Origin: Escherichia coli
GTDB lineage: Bacteria; Pseudomonadota; Gammaproteobacteria; Enterobacterales; Enterobacteriaceae
Assembly: GCF_024700885.2 (NCBI RefSeq)
Contig: NZ_CP117016.1
Direction: 5' to 3' (one strand)
DNA length: 64,000 nt
Made by a program: the position numbers and the translations under genes. This document shows, in pieces, positions 1 to 49,888 of the stretch (position 1 is its first letter; every line of letters starts with the position of its first letter). The notes below the pieces were generated by a model. It had not been told where the DNA came from. It did not search any database and worked only from the letters and a program-made list of their open reading frames with translations.

Positions 1-215
1 AGTCAAATTTGTCCAACTTCCCTTGATTAAAAACAACGAGTTTTTTTATAGAAAAGAAAAACTTTCTCGCATAAGCTGAACTAAAATTCACAGCAGTATA
101 GGCAAGGGTCTCTTTTATAGATGCTAATAAGATAGCATTAATGTTTCTTTCAAAATATGAGAAATTTAATTTAACATCTTTGCTGAGAAACCAAACACTA
201 TCATGTAAACTAAAA

Positions 216-1547: not shown

Positions 1548-1626
1548 AATTTTTTAGCAAGTTACAAATTTATTTGCTATTATTTTCAATGACCTTATTA
1601 CTCGCGACTCTAATAAAGAATCGGCC

Positions 1627-1652
1627 ATATATTCACCTTAAGGTGAATATAT
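1627..1652. promoter_or_regulatory. Perfect 26-bp palindrome ATATATTCACCTTAAGGTGAATATAT just upstream of the tRNA cluster; candidate operator or recombinase site
   Basis: Read directly: 11-bp inverted arms around a TTAA centre, followed by TTGACG at 1661-1666. Function unverified. Confidence 0.3.
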
Positions 1653-1680
1653 ATTCCCTCTTGACGCTCCAAAAAACAAT

Positions 1681-1757
1681 GCGGTAGTAGTTCAGTTGGT
1701 CAGAATATTCCCCTGTCACGGGAATGGTCGTGGGTTCGAGTCCCATCTATCGCGCCA
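1681..1757 (+). tRNA. tRNA-Asp (anticodon GUC), island-borne
   Basis: Manual cloverleaf fold: acceptor GCGGTAG/CTATCGC, D arm GTTC/GAAT, anticodon stem TTCCC/GGGAA with loop CTGTCAC, T arm GTGGG-TTCGAGT-CCCAT, discriminator G, encoded CCA. Confidence 0.7.
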
Positions 1758-1761
1758 GAAA

Positions 1762-1836
1762 GGGCAATTAACTCATTGGTAGAGTGTATCTCTTACAAAG
1801 ATATGGCGGTTGGTTCGATTCCAACATTGCCCACCA
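1762..1836 (+). tRNA. tRNA-Val (anticodon UAC), island-borne
   Basis: Manual fold: acceptor GGGCAAT/ATTGCCC, D arm ACTC/GAGT, anticodon stem TATCT/AGATA with loop CTTACAA, T arm GTTGG-TTCGATT-CCAAC, encoded CCA. Differs from the chromosomal E. coli tRNA-Val sequence as recalled. Confidence 0.7.
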
Positions 1837-1847
1837 AAACATAAAAT

Positions 1848-1918
1848 GCGTCAGTATTTCAATGGTAGAATAAAACATTGCCAATGTTTAGGTGAGGGTT
1901 CGATCCCCCTATATTTAC
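1848..1918 (+). tRNA. tRNA-like element with Gly (GCC) anticodon arm; 3-prime acceptor strand not complementary, so possible pseudo-tRNA or recombination remnant
   Basis: D arm TTTC/GAAT, anticodon stem AAACA/TGTTT with loop TTGCCAA, T loop TTCGATC present. 5-prime acceptor GCGTCAG has no complementary 3-prime strand (ATATTTA) and no CCA. Confidence 0.3.
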
Positions 1919-2104
1919 TTTAGTTAGTAACTCATTGATATAAAATAAATAATAGAAAAGTGTAATTTGTTTTGTAAAGCACAAATAAGAAATTAGAAAA
2001 TATTTAAATGTACAGTGTACGAAAAATTAACCAACTATGTTAATGGCAACTATATGATGATAAAATTACTCATCTAACGATCTATATTATATGAGTAATG
2101 TTTC

Positions 2105-2680
2105 ATGGTACGAAAAATCTCTACATTTTTAAAGATAATAGGAGTTATAGGTTCTTTATGCGGGATTATTGCGACAGTATTCACAATCTATGCGTACTAC
2201 AACCCGACCTCCCCTTCTACTCAGAGATATGACAGTATTGTAGGAAGCTGGCTATCTGATTACTCTTACACCGTAAAAGGGAATACCGTTAGGGTTAATG
2301 GAAAAACGACCTTCTTCTCTAATGGAAAATACAACTTTCATGGCAGTATCTCTATTGACTCTAATGCTCCAGGTGACCATATATTAATAGATTATCTTTC
2401 TGATGGTGCTGGTGATTGGGAACTATATGATAATGAGTTAATTACATCATTAAATAGCCTAAAAACAAAACCTATGAAGCTGGCTTTAAATAACGAAGAT
2501 CTTGATCCACTGAAAATAGAGGTGATAAACAATAAAAAGTTACCAACTATTGAGGAGAATATGGCTGATGGGAAAAACCAATCCTATAAAATAATAAAAT
2601 CTTCAAAAAGCCAGTTAACATTGGAGGTTATTAACGAAATCGGAAGCAATTTCAACTTTACTATGCAAAAAACAAAATAG
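2105..2680 (+). CDS. Hypothetical membrane-anchored protein (single N-terminal TM helix), island cargo
   Basis: 191 aa ORF; hydrophobic N-terminus FLKIIGVIGSLCGIIATVFTIYAYY; AT-rich; convergent with the helicase gene and sharing a terminator with it. Confidence 0.45.
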   Translation: MVRKISTFLKIIGVIGSLCGIIATVFTIYAYYNPTSPSTQRYDSIVGSWLSDYSYTVKGNTVRVNGKTTFFSNGKYNFHGSISIDSNAPGDHILIDYLSDGAGDWELYDNELITSLNSLKTKPMKLALNNEDLDPLKIEVINNKKLPTIEENMADGKNQSYKIIKSSKSQLTLEVINEIGSNFNFTMQKTK

Positions 2681-2682
2681 AA

Positions 2683-2714
2683 ATGATGGCGATCTGAAAT
2701 CGCCATCATTTTTC
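2683..2714. terminator. Bidirectional rho-independent terminator between convergent genes
   Basis: Hairpin TGATGGCGAT-cugaa-ATCGCCATCA followed by TTTTT. Confidence 0.5.
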
Positions 2715-4560
2715 AACCTTGATAATCTTCAGCCTCGATACCACAATAAGTTATCATGTTTGTTATTAACGGTATATCATTACAATTCTGCTTGAAAGAC
2801 CTGCCATAACTATTGTTTCTTATTTTACAACGAGTCATTAATACTTCTTCAATGGCTCTTGAAAATGCCACAAAGACTGTTTTTTGATTTTCTATTTGCT
2901 CTTCTTCTTTACCAAAATAGGCACCAGGTTCAAGCCCCACAACGATGACCTTCCTGAACTCTAACCCTTTACTTTTATGGATGGTCATAAGAGGTATTGT
3001 TTTATTGCCAAGTAATAAATCAATGGCTTCTGATGTGTTTTCTTTTACATCTAACTTATCGAGGTGGCGAGAAAGTAATTCTATGCTATATTCTAAAACA
3101 TTCCCACTCATATACTGCGGAAAGTAAGACTTTATTTTATCGACACCAAATATACTTAATAATGAATATAAATAATCGACAATTTCTCCTTTAATTACCC
3201 GATGAGATTTAATAAACTGGCTAAGTTCTTTTTCTAACCGTGTAACATCACCTCTTTTACTTACTCCTCTTATATTACATAGAAGCTCCATTGTAGTGGC
3301 CCAGCTTTCTATGGATTTTCTATTACAGACAAACATTAGCATTTGTAAAAGTAACTGTACTACAGCTTCATTTAAAAGATCCTGATACTCGTTCTCAAGG
3401 CGACATTGTATTTTCAAATATTGCAATGCTGAAATGATATCGTCTGTATATTGTTTAGCCGGGTTTCTTAGCAGTATACATATATCTCTTTCATTTACTC
3501 CTTCAGCAATCCATTGCTGGATACATAATGCTATATATGCCCCTTCAATACTACTTTCGTCAAATTGTAGTAACTTAGCTGAACCTTCATTTTCAATCAA
3601 CATCATATCAGGCTTTATATCAGCATGATTCATGAAAGCTTCCATCATGCGTTGATAATTTATGAGGTTTTTTAATGACCTTCTATTGCTAACTAATTCA
3701 TTAGATTGTTCGATTCCAAAATCTTTTTTAAACACATCAAAAGCATTGTGCATTGCACCTGCCCAACCCATTATTCTTTGTTTTGTATCACCGACTGCTG
3801 TTATTTTTATTTTTTTACCCAAGAAAATGCTCTTAAAAATCTCATATTGCCTATATGTTGTGTCCTGAAACTCATCGATAAAAGCATAGTCATATGTTGA
3901 ATTTATAGCATTAGATAAATATTGATTCCTACTAATAATATAATTAGCAAGAAAATTAATCATCTTGAATGAAATCCTTGATTTTGGTTTTAATAAGTGT
4001 AACCACACAAACCGTCTTATCCTGCCATCAACAGAATGTTCTAATGCTTTATTATAAGGAGTTACTATATAATTCTCTTCAAAATTATAAGGTTGTAATT
4101 TATTTAATTCTTCAGATGTTAAACCTTCAAAGCCTACGGCCTCTCTTTTAATTTCTTCAACTAAATCATTATTATTTGGAAAGATTATTTCATAGTCATT
4201 TGATGGACGATAAGATTCCGGAATAGTGCTTTTAAAGCGATCAACAATACTTTTACAGAATGCATCAAATGTTGTTGATTCAAATTTGTGTCTATATTTT
4301 GTATCAAGCCGTGAGTTTACTCTATCTTGAAGATTTTTGGCCGCATCTTTTTTAAAGGATAATGCAATTATTTTTTTATTGCTGCATTTTCCTGTCTCAA
4401 TCAAGAAACAAGCTTTCTGAGCCAATAATTCTGTTTTACCTGCACCGGGACCAGCAAGAACGAGATTATGCCCTGTACTATTTCGAATTACCCTCATAGC
4501 CTCGTCTTCTACTTCTTGGATATCCTTTAAAACCCAATCGGCATCTTTAATAGTCGGCAT
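2713..4560 (-). CDS. UvrD/PcrA-like superfamily 1 helicase (GajB-like)
   Basis: 615 aa; SF1 helicase motifs in translation: LAGPGAGKTELL (I), IDEFQDTT (II), GDTKQRIMGW (III), VSNRRS (IV), TIHKSKGLEF (V), VAFSRA (VI). ATG overlaps the upstream stop by 1 nt (TAATG). Confidence 0.8.
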   Translation of the reverse strand: MPTIKDADWVLKDIQEVEDEAMRVIRNSTGHNLVLAGPGAGKTELLAQKACFLIETGKCSNKKIIALSFKKDAAKNLQDRVNSRLDTKYRHKFESTTFDAFCKSIVDRFKSTIPESYRPSNDYEIIFPNNNDLVEEIKREAVGFEGLTSEELNKLQPYNFEENYIVTPYNKALEHSVDGRIRRFVWLHLLKPKSRISFKMINFLANYIISRNQYLSNAINSTYDYAFIDEFQDTTYRQYEIFKSIFLGKKIKITAVGDTKQRIMGWAGAMHNAFDVFKKDFGIEQSNELVSNRRSLKNLINYQRMMEAFMNHADIKPDMMLIENEGSAKLLQFDESSIEGAYIALCIQQWIAEGVNERDICILLRNPAKQYTDDIISALQYLKIQCRLENEYQDLLNEAVVQLLLQMLMFVCNRKSIESWATTMELLCNIRGVSKRGDVTRLEKELSQFIKSHRVIKGEIVDYLYSLLSIFGVDKIKSYFPQYMSGNVLEYSIELLSRHLDKLDVKENTSEAIDLLLGNKTIPLMTIHKSKGLEFRKVIVVGLEPGAYFGKEEEQIENQKTVFVAFSRAIEEVLMTRCKIRNNSYGRSFKQNCNDIPLITNMITYCGIEAEDYQG

Positions 4561-6548
4561 TAAAGTAATCCTCTTACTGTTTCGATAATTTCATTAAGAA
4601 CTTCAGGACTATCATCTCTTAACTTATCGTCTTCCATTTTTGATAGAACATAATTGTGCGATAATGGTTTACCTCTTCCTAAAAATAGGTAACGATACCA
4701 AAAATATTTTTCATAATCATCGAACTCACTAATATCAATATCTTTCTCTTCTTTTTTCAAAACTGCAGCAATTGCCGATTTAACTTTATTATCATATTCA
4801 TGATCGTCATCTTTTGGCAATCTTGGCCCACCATTTTTGGGAACAAATGTCTTATAATCCTCAAAGAATTTATTAAGCATTAGCCAATCTAAATCGTAGG
4901 GGTAAGAAAAATAAACATTATAATCTTTTAGACAATTAATCCATGCCGATTCATTATCTTGATCCTCATCCCATGTATGCATTTTTTCAAGCTCTTCATC
5001 ACTTAAAGTTCCTGAAGTAATACTTAACAATTCATTTTTATCTGCACCTATAGATATTAATTGTTTGACTGCATATTTAATTCTTCCCCAACCACCACCT
5101 CCTCCTCTCTTGAAATCATAGTCGAGAAGAGTCACATGTGGAATTGAAAGCTCATTGAGTAACTTCCAAAAATGATTAACATATCGCCCTCCTAATGGAG
5201 CAAATGTTATCAATGAAGTGTCAAGCTCTATACCATTTACTTGAGCTATTTTAGGTATTACTATTTCTTCGCTATCACCTTCACCAAGTATTACAACTTT
5301 TGCAAAATAAATTTCTGGATATGCCTTCACTGCTTCTTTTACATAAGTGAAAGTATCAACATTGTCTCCATCGTCTTCATCTTCGCTTGGTAATAATATT
5401 GGTTTGACAACAGTATTTTTATTATCATGTAGACGAAAATACCTTATATTTTCTGGTTCTACTCTATTGAGTAATGAAGGTGCGTGTGTTGTTAAAACAA
5501 CCTGTGCTCGATCATTCTCAGATATATCTTCACATAGTTTAACTATTCTTCCTAAATATTGGGGTGAAAGATGATTTTCTGGTTCTTCGATTAATATTAT
5601 CGTTAAATTTGGAGGATCTAATGCTTCTACTGATATTGATAATTCATTTTCTCCTGAATTAATGATCTCATCTTCAATATCAAATGCAGATTTGACTAAC
5701 GAAAGATAAAACAATGACTTCATACCATCACTCAATCTTTCAGTTGGTAATGGCTGAGTCACCGGAGTAGGCATAAATACAGTATCTATATGCTTTAATA
5801 CATCTTCTATTCCATTCATTACTGGCTGAATTTTAAGCTGTTCAAAATACCCTCCGCTAAAAAGAGTTTTCCAATTTCTGCCCAATGAAGATGTTATTGT
5901 CTGAACCCCAATTTCTTCTTGGAACTGGTTTCCGATTGATTCTGCAACCTCATCAACCGTTGAACTCATCTGTTCAGACCATTCAACTGCATTTATCAAA
6001 CGGTGCATGATGGTTCCGGCTGTTTGCTTCAGTTGTTGAGCAGGATCGCGATAAGCAGGGACATAATGAACATGGATTTTTGATCTTTCATATGCTGTAA
6101 TATTTTTTTCATATTCTCCTATTTCCCATACTAAATCACTATCTATATCCCCTTCTGCAAGATTAGTTTTTGTCCATTTAGCTTTTAATTTTGCTATACA
6201 GTATGGGATCTGGTCTGCTTCATTTGAGACCAAATGCTTAAAGAAATCAGCGACTGAATCGTCCTCACCATCTTGCAGATCTGCAAATTCAAATTTTACA
6301 CGAACTGATAATTCTCTTTCATCTTGAGTATCGATTTCATCTCCAGGAGGAACATAAAAATCATCAACTTGAACAATTCTATCGGAGCTTTTGACACCAA
6401 ACATCCTTGTCAATGCGAGGAGAACAGCCGTCTTACCTGTTCCATTCCCTCCAATTAAGCTGGTGAATGAATTTATATTTATAGTTTGCCCTACATTATC
6501 AAAGCTCTTAAAACCTTTGATCTCCATTTGTGTAATTTTCATTATCAC
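4560..6548 (-). CDS. OLD-family ABC-type ATPase with C-terminal TOPRIM nuclease domain (GajA-like)
   Basis: 662 aa ORF from a GTG; likelier ATG start at 6542 with GAGGTG Shine-Dalgarno. Walker A GGNGTGKT, ILIEEPENHLSP (Walker B/D-loop typical of OLD ATPases), VLTTHAP (H-loop), TOPRIM-like VVILGEGDSEEIV and LLDYDFKRGGGGGWG. Confidence 0.8.
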   Translation of the reverse strand: MIMKITQMEIKGFKSFDNVGQTININSFTSLIGGNGTGKTAVLLALTRMFGVKSSDRIVQVDDFYVPPGDEIDTQDERELSVRVKFEFADLQDGEDDSVADFFKHLVSNEADQIPYCIAKLKAKWTKTNLAEGDIDSDLVWEIGEYEKNITAYERSKIHVHYVPAYRDPAQQLKQTAGTIMHRLINAVEWSEQMSSTVDEVAESIGNQFQEEIGVQTITSSLGRNWKTLFSGGYFEQLKIQPVMNGIEDVLKHIDTVFMPTPVTQPLPTERLSDGMKSLFYLSLVKSAFDIEDEIINSGENELSISVEALDPPNLTIILIEEPENHLSPQYLGRIVKLCEDISENDRAQVVLTTHAPSLLNRVEPENIRYFRLHDNKNTVVKPILLPSEDEDDGDNVDTFTYVKEAVKAYPEIYFAKVVILGEGDSEEIVIPKIAQVNGIELDTSLITFAPLGGRYVNHFWKLLNELSIPHVTLLDYDFKRGGGGGWGRIKYAVKQLISIGADKNELLSITSGTLSDEELEKMHTWDEDQDNESAWINCLKDYNVYFSYPYDLDWLMLNKFFEDYKTFVPKNGGPRLPKDDDHEYDNKVKSAIAAVLKKEEKDIDISEFDDYEKYFWYRYLFLGRGKPLSHNYVLSKMEDDKLRDDSPEVLNEIIETVRGLL

Positions 6549-7195
6549 CTCAATTGCTGTTTTAAAAAATTATAATCACTAATTATTTCTGCGTTTGTAA
6601 TGATTTCTTGTGAGCACAGCTTAAAACATTCTAAAAATATATTTTTATTATCGTTATGTTCCCAATGTTTTTTCAAAGCTTCTTCAATTGAAATCCAAAT
6701 AACTTGAAAATCGTTATTAGATATTTGGCTTGTTAAAACTGTTTCTTCCACACAAAGTATATGCCCTAAGATGACATCATCGTATATGTCAGTATCTGAA
6801 TCTCTAACTCCTAACCTTTTTATTTTCCTTTTTTGGATGATTTTATTTTTAACAATAAAAGGATGTTCTTCTATAAAATCGGTCAATGATGTAAAAGCCA
6901 AGCCACGAACCTGAGCACCATGCATTGAACTATTTACTTTATGGATATCTCTCCAAACTCGCAGATCACCTAATACATAGAGAACCCGCTGATTTCTCGC
7001 TTTCGTATCTTCTGCTTGGTATTGGATATAAGGTGGCCCTCCCCCATTTTGTCTATATCGGGCAAGGGTTTTGATGCTTATGCCAAGAAAGACAGAAGCA
7101 AGCTCACTATTTACAGTGGCAGAATCAGGCATTTGACCAAATAGTTTCCATACCTCTGAATACTCCCGCAAAACTTCCACCACACTCATCTTCAC
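6545..7195 (-). CDS. HTH-domain protein (excisionase/MerR-like N-terminus plus uncharacterised ~130 aa C-terminal domain), first gene of the defense operon
   Basis: 216 aa ORF (GTG at 7195 or ATG at 7189). N-terminal ELASVFLGISIKTLARYRQNGGGPPYIQY resembles excisionase-type HTH. Starts within 2 nt of the integrase stop and ends 2 nt before the GajA-like start. Confidence 0.5.
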   Translation of the reverse strand: MKMSVVEVLREYSEVWKLFGQMPDSATVNSELASVFLGISIKTLARYRQNGGGPPYIQYQAEDTKARNQRVLYVLGDLRVWRDIHKVNSSMHGAQVRGLAFTSLTDFIEEHPFIVKNKIIQKRKIKRLGVRDSDTDIYDDVILGHILCVEETVLTSQISNNDFQVIWISIEEALKKHWEHNDNKNIFLECFKLCSQEIITNAEIISDYNFLKQQLR

Positions 7196-8655
7196 TCCCT
7201 CGTTTCAGGTAATGGAGGATACTTAGCCGAAGCAAGTAACACATTGTATAATTTAGGAGCAGTCATAAGCATATGCAACTCAATCCTTTGTAATGCTTCA
7301 AAAATCCGTTCTTGATCAGGTTCTGCATACCTTTCTGTTGGATCTGTTGTATTTCTGTGATTGAGCAGTCTCTTAACGACGGCATATGAAACAAGTTCTT
7401 CAGCAACCCTACCAAATGTCCTTCGTAGATCATGCATACCAAGCTTCAGGATTCCCGCCTCTTGGCAGATATATTCCCTTAGACTTTTACTATCGGAATA
7501 GTGACCAACTTTACTTCGAGAAGAACGGGCCGGGAAAACCCACTTCTGTTTGTCCTTCTGGGTTACCGTATCGTTTACTATGTCTCTTCTATCTTCCAAA
7601 ATTCTTTTGACAGCATCACAAATCGGAAGCTCGTGATCGTTTCGATTCTTAGTGTCGTAAAAACGGATAGTTCTGTTACTCAGGTCAACATAGCTTGTCG
7701 TTTTAGCTTCTTCCTTTGTAAGAGACTCTCGCCAACACAGAGAAGCTGTTTCTTCCTTACGAGCACCTAAGAGAACGGTAAGTAGCAGATAATCGCACCC
7801 AAGCCGGTTGAAGCTTCTCTTGTTGAACAATGCAGTCAAGAACCGACCAAGTGTATCCTTTGGTGATAAGGGGTTTCTGACACCTTTTGCCCGATAACTA
7901 TCCTCAAGCTCAGAACGTGTCCTAAACTTTTTCTGTACCTTTAAGATACTGAAAGGGTTGTAAGATAGAGAAGGTTGTCGTTGCTGGGTCTGAGCATTCC
8001 CAGCTTCAATCTCTATTGCGTGTTTTACAGCAACATTCGCCCACCTAAAGGTCTGTTCCGCTGCTGTTCTGGCTCTTGAAGCAATCTCATCAAACTTCCT
8101 AAGAATTTCATTACCAGTAAGATCTTTAACTCGCAAACCAGCCCACTCAGAAAGCCTGTTTTCTGCTTTATCTAATACAGCCAAGGTGTTGGGTTTAGCT
8201 GGTTTCGCTCTACCCAGCAGATGCTGGCGGTATTGTGCAAACACTTCACTGATAGTGAGTTCAGAAGCATCGGACTCCCGTTTTATTTTGTTAGGGTTCC
8301 TTTTGGTCAACTTCATGGTTTGAACTAAATTGCGAGCAACCTCGCGGGCTTGATCGATGTTAGCGAAATCAGAGACATTGCCAATTGTAGACCTGATAAC
8401 CTCAGATGGGGATTTTCCCCCTGTCTTAGGGCGATTGCCAGGAGAAGAGACTCGTCGCTGAACGATATAGGTCTTTTTCGTTGCACTGATTTTGACACCA
8501 AAACCAACGGGTGAATCCCGGTGATTATCAGTGATAAGATACGGTTTTCGCTCTGGATTGGGTAAGTAGACTACTCTGCCTTGCGGATCAAGGCTCGGTT
8601 TCACGTCGATAGATAACTTATTGATTATAATCGACTGATTGAGTGTCATTTTCAT
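7192..8655 (-). mobile_element. int: P4-type tyrosine integrase
   Basis: ORF track 7192..8763; trimmed to internal ATG (MKMTLNQ...) at 8653-8655. N-terminal arm-binding-like region (YLITDNHRDSPVGFGVKISATKKTYIVQRR), box I ARKEE, HDLRRTF, C-terminal ERY. Near-host GC, unlike the cargo. Confidence 0.8.
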
Positions 8656-8658
8656 CGA

Positions 8659-8717
8659 TGTATACCAGTGGTTCAAGTGTGTATACCAGATAGTAGCTAG
8701 AATACTTCTGGTATACA
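8659..8717. repeat. Three copies of TGTATACCAG (two direct, one inverted) at the integrase 5-prime end; candidate integrase-binding or att-associated sites
   Basis: Exact 10-mers at 8659-8668 and 8680-8689 (direct) and 8708-8717 (inverted), between the integrase start and mutS. Confidence 0.45.
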
Positions 8718-8787
8718 AATTTATGGGTTTATGTGAGTTTAAAGGGGTATCACTTGGGGCCACATAAGTACTCAGAAGACTTTAAAA

Positions 8788-11370
8788 ATGAGTAAAATCA
8801 ATATGAAAGAGTCTGCAAGCAAGGATCTATCAGACCACACTCCTATGATGCAGCAATATCTCAAGCTGAAAGCCCAGCATCCCGAGATCCTGCTGTTTTA
8901 CCGGATGGGTGATTTTTATGAACTGTTTTATGACGACGCAAAACGCGCGTCGCAACTGCTGGATATTTCACTGACCAAACGCGGTGCTTCGGCGGGAGAG
9001 CCGATCCCGATGGCGGGGATCCCCTACCATGCGGTGGAAAACTACCTCGCCAAACTGGTGAATCAGGGCGAGTCCGTTGCCATCTGCGAACAAATTGGCG
9101 ATCCGGCGACCAGCAAAGGTCCGGTTGAGCGCAAAGTTGTGCGTATCGTTACGCCAGGCACCATCAGCGATGAAGCCCTGTTGCAGGAGCGTCAGGACAA
9201 CCTGCTGGCGGCTATCTGGCAGGACAGCAAAGGTTTCGGCTACGCGACGCTGGATATCAGTTCCGGGCGTTTTCGCCTGAGCGAACCGGCTGACCGCGAA
9301 ACGATGGCGGCAGAGCTGCAACGCACTAATCCGGCAGAGCTGTTGTATGCAGAAAATTTCGCCGAGATGTCGCTGATTGAAGGTCGTCGCGGACTGCGCC
9401 GTCGCCCGCTATGGGAGTTTGAAATCGACACCGCGCGCCAGCAGTTGAATCTGCAATTTGGCACCCGCGATCTGGTCGGTTTTGGCGTCGAGAACGCGCC
9501 GCGCGGACTTTGTGCTGCCGGTTGTCTGTTGCAGTATGCGAAAGATACCCAACGTACGACTCTGCCGCATATTCGTTCCATCACCATGGAACGTGAGCAG
9601 GACAGCATCATTATGGATGCCGCGACGCGTCGTAATCTGGAAATCACCCAGAACCTGGCGGGTGGTGCGGAAAATACGCTGGCTTCTGTGCTCGACTGCA
9701 CCGTCACGCCGATGGGCAGCCGTATGCTGAAACGCTGGCTGCATATGCCAGTGCGCGATACCCGCGTCTTGCTTGAGCGCCAGCAAACTATTGGCGCATT
9801 GCAGGATTTCACCGCCGAGCTGCAGCCGGTACTGCGTCAGGTCGGCGACCTGGAACGTATTCTGGCGCGTCTGGCTTTACGAACTGCTCGCCCACGCGAT
9901 CTGGCCCGTATGCGTCACGCTTTCCAGCAACTGCCGGAGCTGCGTGCGCTATTAGAAAATGTCGATAGCGCTCCGGTACAGGCGCTGCGTGAAAAAATGG
10001 GCGAGTTTGCCGAGCTGCGCGATCTGCTGGAGCGAGCAATCATCGACACACCGCCAGTGCTGGTACGCGACGGTGGTGTTATCGCACCGGGCTATAACGA
10101 AGAGCTGGATGAGTGGCGCGCGCTGGCTGACGGCGCGACCGATTATCTGGAGCGTCTGGAAGTCCGCGAGCGTGAACGTACTGGCCTGGACACCCTGAAA
10201 GTCGGCTTTAACGCGGTTCATGGTTATTACATTCAGATCAGCCGTGGACAAAGCCATCTGGCACCCATCAATTACATGCGTCGCCAGACGCTGAAAAACG
10301 CCGAGCGCTACATTATTCCAGAGCTAAAAGAGTACGAAGACAAAGTTCTCACTTCAAAAGGCAAAGCACTGGCACTGGAAAAACAGCTTTATGAAGAGTT
10401 GTTCGACCTGCTGTTGCCGCATCTGGAAGCGTTGCAACAGAGCGCGAGCGCGCTGGCGGAACTCGACGTGCTGGTGAACCTGGCAGAACGGGCCTATACG
10501 CTGAACTACACCTGCCCGACCTTTATTGATAAACCGGGTATTCGCATCACCGAAGGCCGCCATCCGGTGGTTGAACAGGTGCTGAATGAGCCGTTTATCG
10601 CCAACCCGCTGAACCTGTCGCCGCAGCGTCGCATGTTGATCATTACCGGTCCGAATATGGGCGGTAAAAGTACCTATATGCGCCAGACCGCACTGATTGC
10701 GCTGATGGCCTACATCGGCAGCTATGTACCGGCACAAAAAGTCGAGATTGGACCTATCGATCGCATCTTTACCCGCGTAGGGGCAGCGGATGATCTGGCA
10801 TCCGGGCGTTCAACCTTTATGGTGGAAATGACCGAAACCGCCAATATTTTACATAACGCCACCGAGTACAGTCTGGTGCTGATGGATGAGATTGGGCGCG
10901 GGACGTCCACTTACGATGGTCTGTCGCTGGCGTGGGCGTGCGCGGAAAATCTGGCGAATAAGATTAAAGCGTTGACACTGTTTGCCACCCACTATTTCGA
11001 GCTGACCCAGTTACCGGAGAAAATGGAAGGCGTCGCCAACGTGCATCTCGATGCGCTGGAGCACGGCGACACCATTGCCTTTATGCACAGCGTGCAGGAT
11101 GGCGCGGCGAGCAAAAGCTACGGCCTGGCGGTTGCAGCTCTGGCAGGCGTGCCAAAAGAGGTTATTAAGCGCGCACGGCAAAAACTGCGTGAGCTGGAAA
11201 GCATTTCGCCGAACGCCGCCGCTACGCAAGTGGATGGTACGCAAATGTCTTTGCTGTCAGTGCCAGAAGAAACGTCGCCTGCGGTCGAGGCACTGGAAAA
11301 CCTCGACCCGGATTCACTGACTCCGCGTCAGGCGCTGGAGTGGATTTATCGCTTGAAGAGTCTGGTGTAA
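8788..11370 (+). CDS. mutS: DNA mismatch repair protein MutS, with a non-K-12 N-terminus
   Basis: 860 aa; near-identical to E. coli MutS from about residue 17 (HTPMMQQYL...). First ~16 residues ([16 protein letters not shown]) differ from the K-12 N-terminus (MSAIENFDA, from memory). Confidence 0.95.
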
Positions 11371-13145: not shown

Positions 13146-14054
13146 ATGAAAACGGGATCTGAGTTTCATGTCGGTATCGTTGGCTTAGGGTCAATGGGAA
13201 TGGGAGCAGCACTGTCATGTGTCCGCGCAGGTCTTTCTACCTGGGGCGCAGACCTGAACAGCAATGCCTGCGCTACGTTGAAAGAGGCAGGTGCTTGCGG
13301 GGTTTCTGATAACGCCGCGACGTTTGCCGAAAAACTGGACGCTCTGCTGGTGCTGGTGGTCAATGCGGCCCAGGTTAAACAGGTGCTGTTTGGTGAAACA
13401 GGCGTTGCACAACATCTGAAACCCGGTACGGCAGTAATGGTTTCTTCCACTATCGCTAGTGCTGATGCGCAAGAAATTGCTACCGCTCTGGCTGGATTCG
13501 ATCTGGAAATGCTGGATGCGCCAGTTTCTGGTGGTGCAGTAAAAGCCGCTAACGGTGAAATGACTGTCATGGCCTCCGGTAGCGATATTGCCTTTGAACG
13601 ACTGGCACCCGTGCTGGAAGCCGTTGCCGGAAAAGTTTATCGCATAGGTGCAGAACCGGGACTAGGTTCGACCGTAAAAATTATTCACCAGTTGTTAGCG
13701 GGCGTACATATTGCTGCCGGAGCCGAAGCGATGGCACTTGCAGCCCGTGCGGGGATCCCGCTGGATGTGATGTATGACGTCGTGACCAATGCCGCCGGAA
13801 ATTCCTGGATGTTCGAAAACCGGATGCGTCATGTGGTGGATGGCGATTACACCCCGCATTCAGCCGTCGATATTTTTGTTAAGGATCTTGGTCTGGTTGC
13901 CGATACAGCCAAAGCCCTGCACTTCCCGCTGCCATTGGCCTCAACAGCATTGAATATGTTCACCAGCGCCAGTAACGCGGGTTACGGGAAAGAAGACGAT
14001 AGCGCAGTTATCAAGATTTTCTCTGGCATCACTCTACCGGGAGCGAAATCATGA
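13146..14054 (+). CDS. ygbJ: 3-hydroxyisobutyrate dehydrogenase-family oxidoreductase (L-threonate dehydrogenase)
   Basis: 302 aa, Rossmann GLGSMG motif; synteny with ygbK. Confidence 0.85.
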   Translation: MKTGSEFHVGIVGLGSMGMGAALSCVRAGLSTWGADLNSNACATLKEAGACGVSDNAATFAEKLDALLVLVVNAAQVKQVLFGETGVAQHLKPGTAVMVSSTIASADAQEIATALAGFDLEMLDAPVSGGAVKAANGEMTVMASGSDIAFERLAPVLEAVAGKVYRIGAEPGLGSTVKIIHQLLAGVHIAAGAEAMALAARAGIPLDVMYDVVTNAAGNSWMFENRMRHVVDGDYTPHSAVDIFVKDLGLVADTAKALHFPLPLASTALNMFTSASNAGYGKEDDSAVIKIFSGITLPGAKS

Positions 14055-15313
14055 TCAAGATTGGCGTTATCGCCGATGATTTTACCGGCGCGACGGATAT
14101 CGCCAGTTTTCTGGTGGAAAACGGTCTACCAACGGTACAAATTAACGGTGTTCCAACAGGTAAAATGCCGGAAGCAATCGACGCACTGGTGATCAGCCTG
14201 AAAACGCGTTCCTGTCCGGTGGTTGAAGCCACACAGCAATCGCTGGCGGCTCTGAGCTGGTTGCAACAGCAAGGTTGCAAACAGATCTATTTCAAATACT
14301 GCTCTACTTTCGACAGTACGGCGAAAGGTAATATCGGCCCGGTTACCGATGCATTAATGGATGCTCTCGACACGCCGTTTACGGTCTTCTCTCCGGCCCT
14401 GCCGGTCAACGGACGTACGGTTTATCAGGGGTATTTGTTCGTAATGAATCAACTGCTGGCCGAATCTGGGATGCGCCATCACCCGGTAAATCCCATGACC
14501 GACAGCTATCTTCCCCGTCTGGTTGAAGCGCAATCCACAGGGCGCTGCGGCGTCGTTTCGGCACATGTTTTCGAACAAGGTGTGGATGCCGTTCGTCAAG
14601 AGCTGGCTCGCTTACAGCAAGAGGGCTACCGCTACGCGGTGCTTGATGCGCTGACCGAACACCATCTGGAAATTCAGGGAGAAGCCTTGCGCGATGCCCC
14701 ACTGGTAACGGGCGGTTCTGGTCTGGCGATTGGCCTTGCCCGGCAGTGGGCGCAAGAAAACGGTAACCAGGCTCGCAAAGCAGGGCATCCGCTCGCTGGG
14801 CGCGGCGTAGTGCTCTCCGGTTCATGCTCTCAAATGACCAACCGCCAGGTAGCACATTACCGTCAAATTGCACCAGCCCGTGAAGTTGATGTGGCACGCT
14901 GCCTCTCAATTGAAACTCTGGCCGCTTATGCACACGAACTGGCAGAGTGGGTTCTGGGCCAGGAAAGTGTACTTGCTCCACTGGTTTTTGCCACCGCCAG
15001 CACTGACGCATTGGCAGCAATTCAACAGCAATACGGTGCACAAAAAGCCAGTCAGGCAGTAGAAACACTGTTTTCTCAACTAGCGACGCGGTTAGCCGCG
15101 GAAGGCGTGACACGCTTTATTGTCGCAGGCGGTGAGACCTCCGGCGTAGTCACACAGAGCCTGGGAATAAAAGGGTTTCATATTGGCCCAACCATTTCCC
15201 CCGGCGTGCCGTGGGTAAACGCACTGGATAAGCCTGTCTCACTCGCCCTTAAATCTGGCAACTTCGGTGATGAAGCCTTTTTTTCACGAGCCCAAAGAGA
15301 GTTTTTATCATGA
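14051..15313 (+). CDS. ygbK: Four-carbon acid sugar kinase (3-oxo-tetronate kinase)
   Basis: 420 aa; 4-nt overlap with ygbJ; K-12 synteny. Confidence 0.85.
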   Translation: MIKIGVIADDFTGATDIASFLVENGLPTVQINGVPTGKMPEAIDALVISLKTRSCPVVEATQQSLAALSWLQQQGCKQIYFKYCSTFDSTAKGNIGPVTDALMDALDTPFTVFSPALPVNGRTVYQGYLFVMNQLLAESGMRHHPVNPMTDSYLPRLVEAQSTGRCGVVSAHVFEQGVDAVRQELARLQQEGYRYAVLDALTEHHLEIQGEALRDAPLVTGGSGLAIGLARQWAQENGNQARKAGHPLAGRGVVLSGSCSQMTNRQVAHYRQIAPAREVDVARCLSIETLAAYAHELAEWVLGQESVLAPLVFATASTDALAAIQQQYGAQKASQAVETLFSQLATRLAAEGVTRFIVAGGETSGVVTQSLGIKGFHIGPTISPGVPWVNALDKPVSLALKSGNFGDEAFFSRAQREFLS

Positions 15314-18220: not shown

Positions 18221-18457
18221 TTAGCGCTTACCTTCCGCCAGCAGCGGCGGGATGCTCGGCACCATCGGCGCGTCATCAATATCTTTCTGCGTCATGCGGA
18301 ACGCTTCGGGATAATGTTCGCGGCTGGTGCGGCGTAGCGGTTCGGTATCGCGCCAGGTATAGAGGCAATGCTGGCACTGATAGATCGTCCAGACATCTTT
18401 TACCGGCGATTTCGCCATCACTTCAATCTGTTCATCAGCACAACGTGGACAAATCAT
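18221..18457 (-). CDS. Small zinc-ribbon subunit of hydroxyarylic acid decarboxylase (BsdD/EcdD-like)
   Basis: 78 aa with CPRC...CQHC cysteine pairs; directly downstream of the UbiD-family gene. Confidence 0.7.
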   Translation of the reverse strand: MICPRCADEQIEVMAKSPVKDVWTIYQCQHCLYTWRDTEPLRRTSREHYPEAFRMTQKDIDDAPMVPSIPPLLAEGKR

Positions 18458-18467
18458 CTTGTTCTCC

Positions 18468-19895
18468 TTATTTACGTGCGGCCAGCATAGCGGTCAGTTT
18501 TTCAGCCCAGGCTTTGGTTTCCGGTAAATCCACCACCGGCTGGCTGTAGTGACCACGGTTGTCCGGGGCGACAGGCGTGGTGGCGTCGATAATCAGCTTG
18601 TCGGTGATACCGGCCGGGCTTGAGCCGGGGTCGAGTTCCAGCACGGACATATTCGGCAACTGCACCAAATCCCCTGCCGGGTTCACTTTCGAAGAGAGCG
18701 CCCACATCACCTGCGGCAGGTTGAACGGATCAACGTCTTCATCGACCATAATCACCATCTTCACGTAGCCCAGACCGTGTGGCGTGGTCATCGCACGCAG
18801 GCCCACCGCGCGGGCAAAGCCACCGTAGCGTTTTTTGGTGGAGATAATCGCCAGCAGGCCGTGGGTGTACATGGCGTTCACCGCCTGCACTTCCGGGAAC
18901 TCGGCTTTCAGTTGCTGATACAGCGGCACGCAGGTGGCTGGCCCCATCAGGTAGTCGATTTCTGTCCACGGCATGCCGAGGTACAGCGATTCGAAAATCG
19001 GCCTGGTGCGGTAAGAGACTTTATCGATACGCACCACGGTCATGTTACGCCCGCCGGAGTAGTGCCCGGTAAACTCACCGAACGGCCCTTCGATTTCGCG
19101 TTTACGGCTTTCGATGACCCCTTCGAGGATCACCTCCGAGCCCCACGGCACATCAAAACCGGTCAATGGCGCGGTGGCGATCGGATACGGGCTTTCGCGC
19201 AGCGCGCCTGCCATTTCATACTCAGACTGATCGTATTTCAGCGGCGTGGCCCCCATCAGGGTGATGATCGGATCGTTACCGAGCGTGATTGCAATCGGCA
19301 GATCTTCACCGCGCTCTTCTGCTTTATGCAGATGCAGGGCGATATCGTGCATCGGCACCGGTTGCAGGCCGAGCTTACGCTTGCCCTTCACTTCCATGCG
19401 GTAGATGCCGACGTTCTGCTTGCCGAAGTTATCCGGATCAAGCGGATCGCGGGAAACCACGCACGCTTTGTCGAGATAGAAACCGCCATCGCCATCGTTT
19501 AAACGAAACAGCGGCAGGATATCGAACAGGTTGATCTCGTCGCCATCGACGGTGTTCTGCGCCCAGGCTGGATTGGCGCGGCGCTCCGGGGCAATCGGGA
19601 AGTTATCCCAGCGGCGGATAAACTCATCAATCTGCTTTTTGACCGGGGTGTTTGGCGGCAGGCCGAGGGAAATCGCGTGGTTCTGCCAGGAACCGATGGT
19701 ATTCATCGCCACACGGGCATCGGTAAAGCCGCGAATATTATCAAACCACAGCGCGGGCGCGCCGTCGCCGATACGCCCGGTGGCGTTAGCTGCTGCTGCC
19801 AGATCCGGTTCCGCGTTCACCTCTTCGCTGATTTTCAGTAACTGTCCGTGGTCATCAAGCGCCTGTAAAAAGCTGCGTAAATCATCAAATGCCAT
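18468..19895 (-). CDS. UbiD-family (prenyl-FMN-dependent) aromatic acid decarboxylase subunit
   Basis: 475 aa; UbiD-like throughout; overlaps upstream UbiX-like gene by 1 nt. Confidence 0.85.
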   Translation of the reverse strand: MAFDDLRSFLQALDDHGQLLKISEEVNAEPDLAAAANATGRIGDGAPALWFDNIRGFTDARVAMNTIGSWQNHAISLGLPPNTPVKKQIDEFIRRWDNFPIAPERRANPAWAQNTVDGDEINLFDILPLFRLNDGDGGFYLDKACVVSRDPLDPDNFGKQNVGIYRMEVKGKRKLGLQPVPMHDIALHLHKAEERGEDLPIAITLGNDPIITLMGATPLKYDQSEYEMAGALRESPYPIATAPLTGFDVPWGSEVILEGVIESRKREIEGPFGEFTGHYSGGRNMTVVRIDKVSYRTRPIFESLYLGMPWTEIDYLMGPATCVPLYQQLKAEFPEVQAVNAMYTHGLLAIISTKKRYGGFARAVGLRAMTTPHGLGYVKMVIMVDEDVDPFNLPQVMWALSSKVNPAGDLVQLPNMSVLELDPGSSPAGITDKLIIDATTPVAPDNRGHYSQPVVDLPETKAWAEKLTAMLAARK

Positions 19896-20488
19896 TATTC
19901 ATTCTCCTGAGAAAAATTCCGGACCTGCGGCAATCCTTGCCAGCGCCTGGCGTGGGGATGTTCGAGGCCAAATTGATCCAGCACGCGGGCTACCACGTGG
20001 TGGACAATGTCATCTACCGTTTCGGGATGGTTATAAAAGGCAGGCATCGGCGGCACCATCGCCACGCCCATGCGTGAAAGTGCGAGCATATTTTCGAGAT
20101 GGATGGTGCTAAGCGGCATTTCACGCGGCACCAGCACTAGTTTGCGGCCTTCTTTGAGCACGACGTCCGCCGCGCGCCCTACCAGGCCATCGGCGTAACC
20201 GGCACGGATACCGGCGAGCGTTTTCATACTGCACGGAATAACGATCATGCCGTCGGTACGAAAGGAACCTGAGGAGATGGTCGCCGCCTGATCCGCCGGG
20301 TTATGACTGAAGTCTGCGAGGGCAGCAACATCGCGAGCGCTGTAAGGCGTTTCCAGTTCAATGGTGGTTTTCGCCCACTTCGACATCACCAGATGAGTCT
20401 CGACATTCGGCATCTCCCGCAGCGCTTGCAGTAATGCCACCCCAAGAGGCGCACCGGTAGCCCCTGTCATCCCGACGATCAGTCTCAT
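19895..20488 (-). CDS. UbiX/Pad1-family flavin prenyltransferase
   Basis: 197 aa, N-terminal MRLIVGMTGATGAPLG flavoprotein motif. Confidence 0.85.
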   Translation of the reverse strand: MRLIVGMTGATGAPLGVALLQALREMPNVETHLVMSKWAKTTIELETPYSARDVAALADFSHNPADQAATISSGSFRTDGMIVIPCSMKTLAGIRAGYADGLVGRAADVVLKEGRKLVLVPREMPLSTIHLENMLALSRMGVAMVPPMPAFYNHPETVDDIVHHVVARVLDQFGLEHPHARRWQGLPQVRNFSQENE

Positions 20489-20601
20489 TGTTTATTCTCT
20501 TAATTGTTCGTATACGAACGTTATTATTAAAATACGCCTCTGTTTTCATCGCGGCAAGCACTGAAAAGTAACAACATCTTCTTCGTCACTGAAAAACCGC
20601 T

Positions 20602-21042
20602 ATGATAGCCACAGATAGTTTGCCCGGAGTTTACATGGCGTTACGAAATAAAGCGTTCCATCAGTTACGACAGCTTTTTCAGCAGCACACGGCTCGCTGG
20701 CAGCACGAGTTACCTGACCTCACCAAACCACAGTACGCGGTGATGCGCGCCATTGCTGATAAGCCTGGTATCGAACAGGTGGCACTGATGGAAGCAGCAG
20801 TCAGCACCAAAGCAACGCTGGCAGAAATGCTGGCAAGAATGGAAAATCGTGGCTTAGTCAGACGAGAACATGACACCGCTGATAAGCGGCGACGCTTTGT
20901 CTGGCTGACTGCCGAAGGAGAAAAGGTACTTGCTGCGGCGATACCGATTGGTGACAGCGTGGATGAGGAATTTTTGGGGCGTTTGAGTGCAGAAGAGCAG
21001 GAGCTGTTTATGCAGCTGGTGCGCAAGATGATGAACGCATAG
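20602..21042 (+). CDS. MarR/SlyA-family transcriptional regulator
   Basis: 146 aa winged-helix; divergent from the decarboxylase operon. Confidence 0.8.
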   Translation: MIATDSLPGVYMALRNKAFHQLRQLFQQHTARWQHELPDLTKPQYAVMRAIADKPGIEQVALMEAAVSTKATLAEMLARMENRGLVRREHDTADKRRRFVWLTAEGEKVLAAAIPIGDSVDEEFLGRLSAEEQELFMQLVRKMMNA

Positions 21043-32222: not shown

Positions 32223-32348
32223 TGGGTTTGAAATGATTACTCCCTTGCCTGCAGGAAATCAATGCCACCAGAAACAGAGTATAAAAAAGGGGTGCAGGAG
32301 GCCAAACTTTAACAATTCAATACGCGGGGTTTTACCCCCGCGTGGTGG

Positions 32349-32501
32349 CTACTTCTTCGATTCGTAAGCGAGAACTGCCTTAAACTCCATACCACGTTCT
32401 CTGATACTCAACTCACACAACGAGTCGCCTACCATCAGCGTGAATCCCAGTACTGTACAACACAGTACGATGATTGCCACAAGGGCATATTTTGTCAGCA
32501 T
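32349..32501 (-). CDS. Hok/Gef-family type I toxin (small membrane peptide), apparently intact
   Basis: 50 aa [53 protein letters not shown] with the SLCE...AYES signature of Hok/Gef toxins; GGAGG Shine-Dalgarno 6 nt upstream. Not in the ORF track (under 60 aa). Confidence 0.6.
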
Positions 32502-32765
32502 GTCTTGCCTCCCTGCAAAGAAGAGACTAACATTCGAATTGCTTAGGTTCGAACGCTGGCCTCAGGTTGATAGAAATATCGCCTGGGGCTTTTGTCCATC
32601 TGGAACCTCGCGAATGCTTAACGCCAGACAGCCTCAAGCACCCAACTCCATTCTATACCTGTTAATTCTCCCTGCGATGTTCACCTTTAAATGCCGGAAT
32701 GCTGCTCGCAAAATAAAAACGCCCCCATCATTTCTGACAGAGGCGTTTAATTTATCCGGCAATAT

Positions 32766-47080: not shown

Positions 47081-48559
47081 ATGTCGAAAAAATACATCAT
47101 AGGGATTGATGGCGGAAGTCAGAGCACAAAAGTGGTGATGTACGATCTGGAAGGTAACGTGGTTTGCGAAGGCAAAGGCTTATTACAGCCGATGCACACG
47201 CCAGATGCCGATACTGCAGAACATCCTGACGACGATTTATGGGCATCATTATGTTTTGCCGGTCACGATTTGATGAGTCAGTTTGCCGGAAATAAAGAAG
47301 ATATTGTCGGTATTGGTCTGGGATCCATCCGTTGCTGCCGTGCGTTATTGAAAGCCGATGGCACGCCAGCTGCGCCGTTGATTAGCTGGCAGGATGCTCG
47401 CGTTACACGCCCTTACGAACATACGAATCCTGACGTGGCATATGTCACCTCTTTTTCGGGTTATCTGACGCATCGCTTAACCGGCGAGTTTAAAGATAAT
47501 ATCGCCAACTATTTTGGTCAGTGGCCGGTGGATTATAAGAGCTGGGCATGGAGCGAAGAGGCTGCGGTAATGGATAAGTTTAATATCCCCCGTCATATGC
47601 TGTTTGATGTGCAAATGCCTGGCACCGTCCTCGGACATATCACACCACAAGCCGCGCTGGCGACACATTTCCCGGCTGGGCTGCCGGTTGTTTGTACCAC
47701 CAGTGATAAACCGGTAGAAGCACTGGGAGCCGGGTTACTGGATGATGAAACTACGGTAATTTCTCTTGGCACTTACATCGCGTTGATGATGAACGGCAAA
47801 GCACTGCCGAAAGATCCGGTAGCGTACTGGCCGATTATGTCTTCTATTCCGCAAACATTGCTGTATGAAGGTTACGGTATCCGCAAAGGCATGTGGACAG
47901 TGAGCTGGCTGCGCGACATGTTAGGCGAGTCGTTAATTCAGGATGCCAAAGCACAGGATCTTTCACCGGAAGATTTGCTCAACAAAAAAGCGTCTTGTGT
48001 GCCGCCTGGCTGTAATGGTCTGATGACGGTGCTGGACTGGCTGACCAATCCGTGGGAACCGTACAAACGCGGGATTATGATCGGCTTTGATTCCAGCATG
48101 GATTACGCATGGATATATCGTTCGATACTGGAAAGCGTGGCGCTGACGCTGAAGAACAATTACGACAATATGTGTAATGAAATGAATCACTTTGCAAAGC
48201 ATGTGATCATTACTGGCGGCGGTTCGAACAGCGATCTGTTTATGCAGATTTTTGCCGACGTGTTCAACCTTCCGGCACGCCGTAACGCCATTAATGGTTG
48301 TGCAAGTCTGGGGGCAGCGATTAATACGGCGGTAGGTCTGGGGCTATACCCGGATTACGCAACGGCTGTCGACAAAATGGTTCGCGTGAAAGATATCTTT
48401 ATGCCTGTTGAGAGCAACGCCAAACGCTACGACGCGATGAATAAAGGCATTTTCAAAGACCTAACCAAGCACACTGATGTGATCCTGAAAAAATCGTATG
48501 AAGTGATGCATGGTGAGCTGGGGAATGAAGATTCGATCCAGAGCTGGTCGAATGCGTAA
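47081..48559 (+). CDS. ygcE: FGGY-family carbohydrate kinase
   Basis: 492 aa; K-12 synteny. Confidence 0.8.
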   Translation: MSKKYIIGIDGGSQSTKVVMYDLEGNVVCEGKGLLQPMHTPDADTAEHPDDDLWASLCFAGHDLMSQFAGNKEDIVGIGLGSIRCCRALLKADGTPAAPLISWQDARVTRPYEHTNPDVAYVTSFSGYLTHRLTGEFKDNIANYFGQWPVDYKSWAWSEEAAVMDKFNIPRHMLFDVQMPGTVLGHITPQAALATHFPAGLPVVCTTSDKPVEALGAGLLDDETTVISLGTYIALMMNGKALPKDPVAYWPIMSSIPQTLLYEGYGIRKGMWTVSWLRDMLGESLIQDAKAQDLSPEDLLNKKASCVPPGCNGLMTVLDWLTNPWEPYKRGIMIGFDSSMDYAWIYRSILESVALTLKNNYDNMCNEMNHFAKHVIITGGGSNSDLFMQIFADVFNLPARRNAINGCASLGAAINTAVGLGLYPDYATAVDKMVRVKDIFMPVESNAKRYDAMNKGIFKDLTKHTDVILKKSYEVMHGELGNEDSIQSWSNA

Positions 48560-48605
48560 GTGAGGAAGGCCGGGCGGGAAACTGCCCGGCCTGAACATAC
48601 CTGAA

Positions 48606-48877
48606 TGGTTATCCCCGCTGACGCGGGGAACTCGCCAGTGCCTGGTCATATGTGTAACACCTATCCGGTTTATCCCCGCTCGCGCGGGGAACTCTTGCTG
48701 TATAGAGATTATCGGCGTGGGATTGTCGGTTTATCCCCGCTCGCGCGGGGAACTCGTTTGCGGCTTGCAAACATTTTAATGCGTATTCGGTTTATCCCCG
48801 CTCGCGCGGGGAACTCCCAGCCCGACACAAATAATGCAGCATTGCGCGCGGTTTATCCCCGCTCGCGCGGGGAACTC
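48606..48877 (-). CRISPR. Orphan type I-E-like CRISPR array: 4 intact 29-bp repeats plus 1 degenerate terminal repeat, four 32-bp spacers; AT-rich leader on the right (transcribed on minus strand)
   Basis: Repeats CGGTTTATCCCCGCTCGCGCGGGGAACTC at 48666-48694, 48727-48755, 48788-48816, 48849-48877; degenerate copy at 48606-48633. Spacers at 48634-48665, 48695-48726, 48756-48787, 48817-48848. Reverse complement matches the E. coli I-E repeat except one loop base. No cas genes in the window. Confidence 0.9.
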
Positions 48878-49216
48878 TCTAAACATAACCTATTATTAAT
48901 TAATGATTTTTTAAGCCAGTCACAATCTACCAACTTTACAGTATCACACAAACAACACATCTATTATGTTAAAGAGCACTTAATCCATTGATTGAAAAGG
49001 TAAATATTTAAAATAACTCTATACAAACTAAAATCTACCAAACTCCGACGTAATAATTTTCACCTCAGAGAAAAATTAACGCCACAGAATTTGTAGAGAA
49101 TGACAATGATTAGTCCGGAATGGGCAAAATGGATGAGTTTTCAGAGGCGACAAAAAATATAAATGAGTGGAAGTCTTTACAGGTTCCACCCATTTATAAC
49201 GCATATAAATGTGTAA

Positions 49217-49888
49217 TCAGGCAATATTTAAATATTTATGTGTTTGCATCGACAAACGCCAGTTACGCGCAATGCAAGTTTCAATGCACAAACGTGTGGC
49301 ATCATCCTTTTGGCTAATCGGCTGCAGTGCAATGACTCGCGGTTTATCATCGGTCAGCGTCGCAAGCAATTCATCCAGTGCTTCGATATCACGTACGCGT
49401 CCAACTGGGTGTTTGATTTCGTTAGCTCGCTCCAGGGCTTGCGACAATACTTCATAACCACCACGCATATTTAGCTTTGGCGACACGGTGACCCAGGTAT
49501 TCGACGTACAACGCACTTCATGAGTACCGCTGGTTTCTATCTGGCAACTGAAACCGTTCTTTTCGAGCAGATCAGTTAGTGGCATCAAGTCATGAATACA
49601 AGGTTCACCACCCGTAATCACCACGTGACGCGCGGTGTATCCCTGACGACCGATGACTGCGAGTAAGTCTTCACTGCTTGCTGCTCCCCACTTATCACTC
49701 TCTTTCGTTTTACCCAGAATGCTGAAAAGGGAAACTTCCCGATCCTCAAGCTTTTCCCATGTGTGTTTGGTGTCGCACCAGGCACAGCCGACCGGGCATC
49801 CCTGTAAACGAATAAAAATGGCGGGAACGCCGGTAAAGTAACCCTCACCTTGCAGGGTCTGGAACATCTCGTTAATCGGGTACTGCAT
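49217..49888 (-). CDS. queE: 7-carboxy-7-deazaguanine synthase (radical SAM)
   Basis: 223 aa, radical-SAM cysteine motif CPVGCAWCD. Confidence 0.9.
   Translation of the reverse strand: MQYPINEMFQTLQGEGYFTGVPAIFIRLQGCPVGCAWCDTKHTWEKLEDREVSLFSILGKTKESDKWGAASSEDLLAVIGRQGYTARHVVITGGEPCIHDLMPLTDLLEKNGFSCQIETSGTHEVRCTSNTWVTVSPKLNMRGGYEVLSQALERANEIKHPVGRVRDIEALDELLATLTDDKPRVIALQPISQKDDATRLCIETCIARNWRLSMQTHKYLNIA

Follow-up and report, generated by a model that had tools for sequence, protein, structure and literature searches.

The CRISPR array at positions 48606-48877 of the window (the whole 64,000-nucleotide stretch of Escherichia coli DNA analyzed here) is the E. coli CRISPR-II array (“CRISPR2.2-3”) of the subtype I-E system. 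It is very probably an inert relic, frozen since the cas genes were lost, although its cis elements are intact. The evidence comes from the anatomy of the array and its leader, from the phage genes matched by its spacers, from the absence of cas genes at their usual site and, in a search for cas1e and cas7e, elsewhere in 29 of 30 genomes of the same lineage, and from the invariance of the array across all 30.

Anatomy of the array and its leader

The array lies between ygcE and queE and consists of five direct repeats of about 29 nt with four unique 32-mers between them, the organization of an I-E array (Table 1). The 29-nt repeat (CGGTTTATCCCCGCTCGCGCGGGGAACTC on the plus strand) is present in four perfect copies in the window, with a period of exactly 61 nt; no array-like repeats were found in 100 dinucleotide-preserving shuffles of the sequence. 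The functional orientation is the minus strand, with the leader on the queE side and the oldest end on the ygcE side. A single array thus runs through the ygcE-queE interval, from the terminal repeat to leader 2.3, a continuous configuration that has been termed CRISPR2.2-3 (PMC4489801). The array escaped Tandem Repeats Finder, as its spacers are unique, and a search of the array region with Rfam 15 returned no CRISPR repeat family at the gathering threshold or at E <= 1, with two sub-threshold chance matches. An open reading frame listed across the array (48605-48991) was rejected as an artefact of the repeats; the RefSeq annotation there is “CRISPR” only.

The fifth repeat (R1) carries three substitutions and a 1-nt deletion relative to the other four. 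This degeneracy is not a sign of decay, since R1 is the conserved end of the array: its sequence is identical to that of the degenerate repeat abutting ygcE in K-12, MEI003 and other strains. Compared with the K-12 CRISPR-I consensus (GAGTTCCCCGCGCCAGCGGGGATAAACCG), the perfect repeat is identical at 28 of 29 positions, and the sole difference, at position 14, turns the tetraloop GCCA into GCGA. The repeat has the 7-bp stem and tetraloop of the I-E repeat family, and both the predicted stem and the folding energy (-15.1 kcal/mol) are the same for the variant and for the K-12 CRISPR-I repeat.

The variant repeat is present in 40 of 5,426 complete genomes. It occurs in 17 copies in the CRISPR-II array of MEI003 and in 13 copies in that of 06-00048, two strains with a complete cas-E1 operon. 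The loop variant was considered as a mark of decay and rejected, since cas-positive strains expand arrays built of the same variant. New repeats are copied from the leader-proximal repeat (PMC3384332), and the only repeat elements essential for adaptation are the two inverted-repeat halves (PMC5039180). Because of this mode of copying, because the essential elements are limited to these halves, and because arrays of cas-positive strains have grown with the variant, we regard the loop substitution as a neutral lineage marker. The GCGA loop is compatible with adaptation and does not indicate decay.

The leader is AT-rich, and its positions -1 to -60 (48878-48937) are identical to those of the K-12 CRISPR2.3 leader and of the leaders of MEI003 and 06-00048. 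Spacer integration needs 60 bp of leader and one repeat (PMC3384332, from which the -10 position in Table 1 is also taken). The putative -10 hexamer reads TACTGT here and in the cas-positive MEI003, and TACTAT in K-12; a simple consensus scan of the leader detected no sigma-70 promoter and no terminator on the minus strand. An earlier note on this DNA had described five repeats and four spacers between ygcE and queE, an AT-rich leader, a degenerate terminal repeat, and a single loop substitution relative to the K-12 repeat. All of this agrees with our results, the substitution being single with respect to the CRISPR-I consensus of K-12.

Table 1. Positions in the window of the array, its leader, the cas-less iap-cysH site and the Gabija genes.
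Feature	Position	Strand	Remarks
GajB	2713-4560	minus	PADLOC E 2.6e-198
GajA	4560-6548	minus	PADLOC E 1.9e-240
Empty cas site	32223-32765	none	48-nt junction segment, IG3, hok, sok; matches arrangement B (PMC3903273)
hok	32351-32503	minus	intact, 50 codons
sok RNA	32486-32643	minus	Rfam match, 111.7 bits
R1, terminal (oldest) degenerate repeat	48606-48633	minus	reads GAGTTCCCCGCGTCAGCGGGGATAACCA; adjoins ygcE
S1 (oldest spacer)	48634-48665	minus	GATAGGTGTTACACATATGACCAGGCACTGGC
R2, repeat	48666-48694	minus	minus-strand reading GAGTTCCCCGCGCGAGCGGGGATAAACCG
S2	48695-48726	minus	ACAATCCCACGCCGATAATCTCTATACAGCAA
R3, repeat	48727-48755	minus	perfect copy
S3	48756-48787	minus	AATACGCATTAAAATGTTTGCAAGCCGCAAAC
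R4, repeat	48788-48816	minus	perfect copy
S4 (newest spacer)	48817-48848	minus	CGCGCAATGCTGCATTATTTGTGTCGGGCTGG
R5, leader-proximal repeat	48849-48877	minus	perfect copy; template for any new repeat (role from PMC3384332)
Leader	48878-49216	minus	31% G+C, against 49% in the window
Putative -10 hexamer, TACTGT	48938-48943	minus	at the published -10 position

Absence of cas genes

The earlier note had called the cas operon site near iap empty, and it is: only hok/sok lies between iap (ending at 32222) and cysH (starting at about 32766). We found no cas genes, CRISPR2.1, L1/L2 leader or repeats between these two genes in the window, which leaves an iap-cysH interval with hok/sok and intergenic remnants, as in arrangement B. 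The same interval of K-12 spans 9.7 kb and contains CRISPR2.1 and the cas operon. At the position of hok/sok, K-12 has only sokX and the first bases of a truncated hok.

A 48-nt junction segment (32234-32281) is covered in the genomes with the cas-less junction, and genomes with cas-E1 match the window from 32282 onward only; a search for its source in the cas loci of MEI003 and K-12 found no counterpart. The contiguous cas-less junction is present in 1,105 of the 5,426 complete genomes. In other cas-less lineages the junction is only about 96.6-96.9% identical, which suggests that the deletion is old or has been transferred.

E. coli MLI114 (human stool, Mali) matches the window at 100% identity over the stretches compared (1-9500 and 47081-49888), and strain 1190 matches it at 99.98-99.99% over 8835-64000. 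Genomes were searched for cas genes with a chimeric query, composed of a lineage-identical tag (the 2.8-kb ygcE-array-queE segment) and of cas1e and cas7e from both I-E variants. The tag was found at 100% identity in 30 of the 5,426 genomes. In 29 of these 30, including the chromosomes of MLI114 and strain 1190, there was no match to cas1e or cas7e at megablast sensitivity, a search that covers the two E. coli I-E variants only and that a very divergent cas set would escape. Within the complete-genome set, cas-E1 DNA is present in 2,793 genomes and cas-E2 DNA in 1,223 (of 5,426 in both cases), and neither was found on the plasmids of these genomes.

The I-F site (infA-serW-clpA) had no cas genes in strain 1190 or in MLI114. 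The site is empty in MLI114; strain 1190 has an orphan I-F mini-array between serW and clpA, with two repeats and one 32-nt spacer (4960-5050 of the fetched locus) and an annotated “RtT sRNA” just beside it. The description of the CRISPR-II array as an orphan, which the earlier note had limited to the window, can be extended to the MLI114 chromosome on the basis of the megablast search for cas1e and cas7e. The whole-genome check that the note had proposed, run on MLI114 and strain 1190 with cas1e and cas7e at megablast sensitivity, did not turn up a complete I-E cas operon (cas3, the Cascade genes, cas1 and cas2).

Spacers and their protospacers

AAG is the canonical PAM of the E. coli I-E system, and three of the four spacers match phage genes, two of them exactly and beside an AAG. 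The protospacer of S2, at 100% identity and with AAG in front, lies in the prophage terL gene (terminase large subunit) of STEC379. That of S3, also at 100% and with AAG in front, was found in an IMG/VR contig, inside a Mu Gam-like gene that adjoins an exonuclease gene and an integrase gene; S3 had no match in the phage and plasmid collections. S1 matches at 29 of 32 positions a tail protein gene of the lambdoid Stx2k phage phiSTEC1575, where the upstream bases are AAA and then G, and it had no exact match in IMG/VR. No protospacer was found for S4 in the phage collection, the plasmid collection or IMG/VR. An AWG PAM has been observed as well (PMC3384332). Since spacers of the array match phage genes, S2 and S3 next to an AAG PAM, a working I-E Cas1-Cas2 complex must have built it.

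S2 is also the newest (leader-proximal) spacer of the CRISPR2.1 array of MSI001 (20031-20062 of the fetched locus) and of a few other cas-E2 strains. Its presence in both arrays implies that the terL protospacer was captured in two different arrays and lineages, or that the spacer was exchanged between arrays.

Distribution of the array

All 30 tag-bearing genomes have one and the same array. Their sources are a dog (UK), humans (Mali, Japan, USA), chickens, lake water, seawater and an Australian mountain pygmy possum, and iap-cysH is equally empty in the lineage members checked. Given this constancy across several continents and hosts, we consider the array frozen; such invariance is expected for an array no longer able to acquire spacers. 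The comparison of spacer content with other strains, another check put forward in the earlier note, gave this one array in 30 genomes, and its CRISPR-II spacer set in no cas-positive genome among the 5,426. The array offers a clean natural case of orphan arrays remaining unchanged once Cas1-Cas2 is lost, and its identity in 30 complete genomes makes it useful as a lineage marker.

Matches to cas-E genes outside the native site

One tag-bearing genome, GmM066 (NZ_CM183652.1), differs from the other 29 in its matches to cas genes. It combines the identical array with an empty iap-cysH interval (4105-6420 of the fetched locus), yet away from that interval its chromosome also matches cas1e and cas7e, at places a few kb from each other. 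This signal points either to an ectopic cas-E locus or to an artefact of the assembly. When the exact GmM066 Cas7e protein was looked up, only canonical iap-cysH contexts came back, and in GmM066 the island hotspot on the mutS side is empty.

We also observed cas-E1 genes on a plasmid. The conjugative IncHI2A plasmid pIOMTU792 (NZ_LC542972.1; 8400-20600 of the fetched segment) contains a 7.4-kb piece of the chromosomal CRISPR-I locus, with part of casA, casB through cas2e, a CRISPR2.1 array and iap, adjoining WbuC-blaCTX-M-15-ISEcp1. This partial cas-E1 operon includes cas1-cas2-cas6e and Cascade genes, and the piece is 100% identical to a native chromosomal locus. The contiguous ISEcp1-blaCTX-M-15-cas unit of pIOMTU792 was found in none of the complete genomes. 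An IncI1 plasmid (NZ_CP107157.1; about 14000-14150 of the fetched segment) has a few I-E repeats beside a WbuC-blaCTX-M-15-ISEcp1 unit. These arrangements suggest that ISEcp1 mobilises cas-E1 genes.

Origin and present state of the array

The history that we consider very probable would begin with an ancestor possessing Cas1-Cas2, which would have inserted 32-nt pieces of temperate phages, taken beside AAG PAMs, at the leader end of the array. Each insertion would have duplicated the leader-proximal repeat, with the GCGA loop variant already present. A deletion between iap and hok/sok would then have taken out CRISPR2.1 with its leader, along with the full set of eight cas genes. Lacking Cas1-Cas2, the array could no longer grow; lacking Cas6e, any transcript would presumably be left unprocessed; and lacking Cascade and Cas3, there would be no targeting. 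Since neither the 60-bp leader core nor the inverted-repeat halves of the first repeat have changed, a supply of cas-E genes would most likely restore the function of the array.

The alternatives that we weighed against an inert relic concern the present use of the array, its provenance and its function. The earlier note had proposed that short orphan arrays of this kind may be inert relics or may be used in trans, and it is the former part that our data support. In the latter, the array would be a dormant memory actually in use, processed and extended by cas-E genes from an ectopic chromosomal copy or from a plasmid. Its intact cis elements would allow this, BL21-AI provides an experimental precedent, GmM066 combines the identical array and a cas-less iap-cysH with cas1e and cas7e elsewhere on the chromosome, and pIOMTU792 shows that casB through cas2e, with the CRISPR2.1 array and iap, can sit beside ISEcp1-blaCTX-M-15 on a conjugative plasmid. 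However, MLI114 and 28 other members of the lineage have neither cas1e nor cas7e, no plasmid of the complete-genome set carries cas-E, and the array is the same in all 30 genomes including GmM066, hence no spacer has been gained; moreover, the plasmid copy has no cas3 and no intact casA, and the GmM066 signal could be artefactual. Use in trans is thus very unlikely, and for the present genome it is improbable given the lack of cas genes. A non-immune role, for instance as an anti-cas barrier or a regulatory RNA, we regard as exceedingly improbable. It has in its favor an analogy with the anti-cas spacers that orphan I-F arrays reportedly carry, but three of the four spacers here match phage genes, and none matches the cognate cas genes: blastn-short searches of S1-S4 against the cas-E1 loci of MEI003 and 06-00048 and the cas-E2 loci of K-12 and MSI001 returned chance 9-12-mers only. 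The same held for self-targeting, with no match beyond chance 9-12-mers in about 400 kb of fetched host DNA.

It is also very unlikely that the array is not a relic of the lineage's own immunity, having been imported by homologous recombination into a lineage already without cas. The same deletion junction, with the 48-nt filler included, is spread over the 1,105 genomes mentioned above, and a deletion that is old or was transferred means that the array could have come by recombination after the cas loss. S2 and S3 are still fully identical to sequences of extant phages, and CRISPR-I and CRISPR-II have been found to evolve independently (PMC3903273). Against this, the CRISPR-II spacer set is absent from the cas-positive genomes among the 5,426, and the flanks of the array are 2.7-3.5% divergent from those of the cas-positive strains with the same repeat variant, so that no donor was found. 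A recent import from a donor like MEI003 or 06-00048 was rejected on account of this divergence and because no spacers are shared. Under either history, the functional outcome is an inert array.

Beyond the state of the array in this lineage, a frozen array might serve as a reserve memory, re-armed in nature whenever cas-E genes reach a site other than their native one. We think it very unlikely that this happens. If it did, antibiotic-resistance transposition units would carry genes for CRISPR adaptation and processing from one E. coli lineage to another. The ectopic cas-E signal of GmM066 and the partial cas-E1 operon on pIOMTU792 bear on such re-use of orphan memories, and could matter more than the array itself.

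Comparison with known CRISPR arrays

The closest characterized counterpart is the CRISPR-II of K-12 (CRISPR2.2 and CRISPR2.3), which has the same ygcE-queE/ygcF locus, orientation, degenerate terminal repeat, repeat family and first 60 leader nucleotides. In K-12, however, there are two arrays about 0.5 kb of AT-rich DNA apart, with six spacers in CRISPR2.3; here this separator is missing, and one continuous array holds four unrelated spacers. The CRISPR-II repeats of K-12 start with GTG and have a GCCA loop, whereas those described here start with GAG and have a GCGA loop. K-12 also has a cas-E2 operon, which is missing here.

The biology of this array is already known from E. coli strains that lack cas genes and keep a short CRISPR-II with a conserved leader (Almendros et al. 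2014, PMC3903273; Garcia-Gutierrez et al. 2015, PMC4489801). Their arrangement B has the same iap-IG-hok/sok-cysH order and does not differ in kind from what we found; four spacers are kept here, whereas B2 strains such as IHE3034 match the last repeat and the leader only. CRISPR2.3 leaders are conserved in strains without cas-E (PMC3903273), and repeat numbers are reduced in cas-less strains of E. coli (PMC4489801). Taken alone, the finding therefore adds little, being one more instance of a documented state.

BL21-AI (Yosef et al. 2012, PMC3384332) is likewise a cas-less E. coli with an array on the ygcE side and a conserved leader, and its orphan array acquires spacers once Cas1-Cas2 is supplied (PMC3384332). 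By analogy, the present array may be competent in trans as well. The cas genes of BL21 were lost in a different arrangement, as its junction matches the window from 32327 onward only. Short arrays without cas are also known as the orphan I-F CRISPR4 arrays of E. coli, one of which is present in strain 1190, but they belong to a different repeat family and locus. Almendros et al. in 2016 reportedly described anti-cas spacers in such orphan I-F arrays of E. coli, and these spacers have no counterpart here.

Other features of the window

The first part of the window (1-8834) is an integrative island beside mutS, with 34% G+C, which is 100% identical in MLI114 and absent from strain 1190. It contains tyrosine recombinases, tRNA-Asp, tRNA-Val, a partial tRNA-like match and a Gabija defence system (GajA and GajB in Table 1). 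DRT3 occupies the same spot in another genome, so that the spot looks like a defence-island hotspot. Between rpoS and ygbN (18221-21042), an interval that we take to be a variable region of E. coli, the window encodes a MarR-family regulator and the B, C and D subunits of a hydroxyarylic acid decarboxylase; in the K-12-like strain MSI001, rpoS directly adjoins ygbN.
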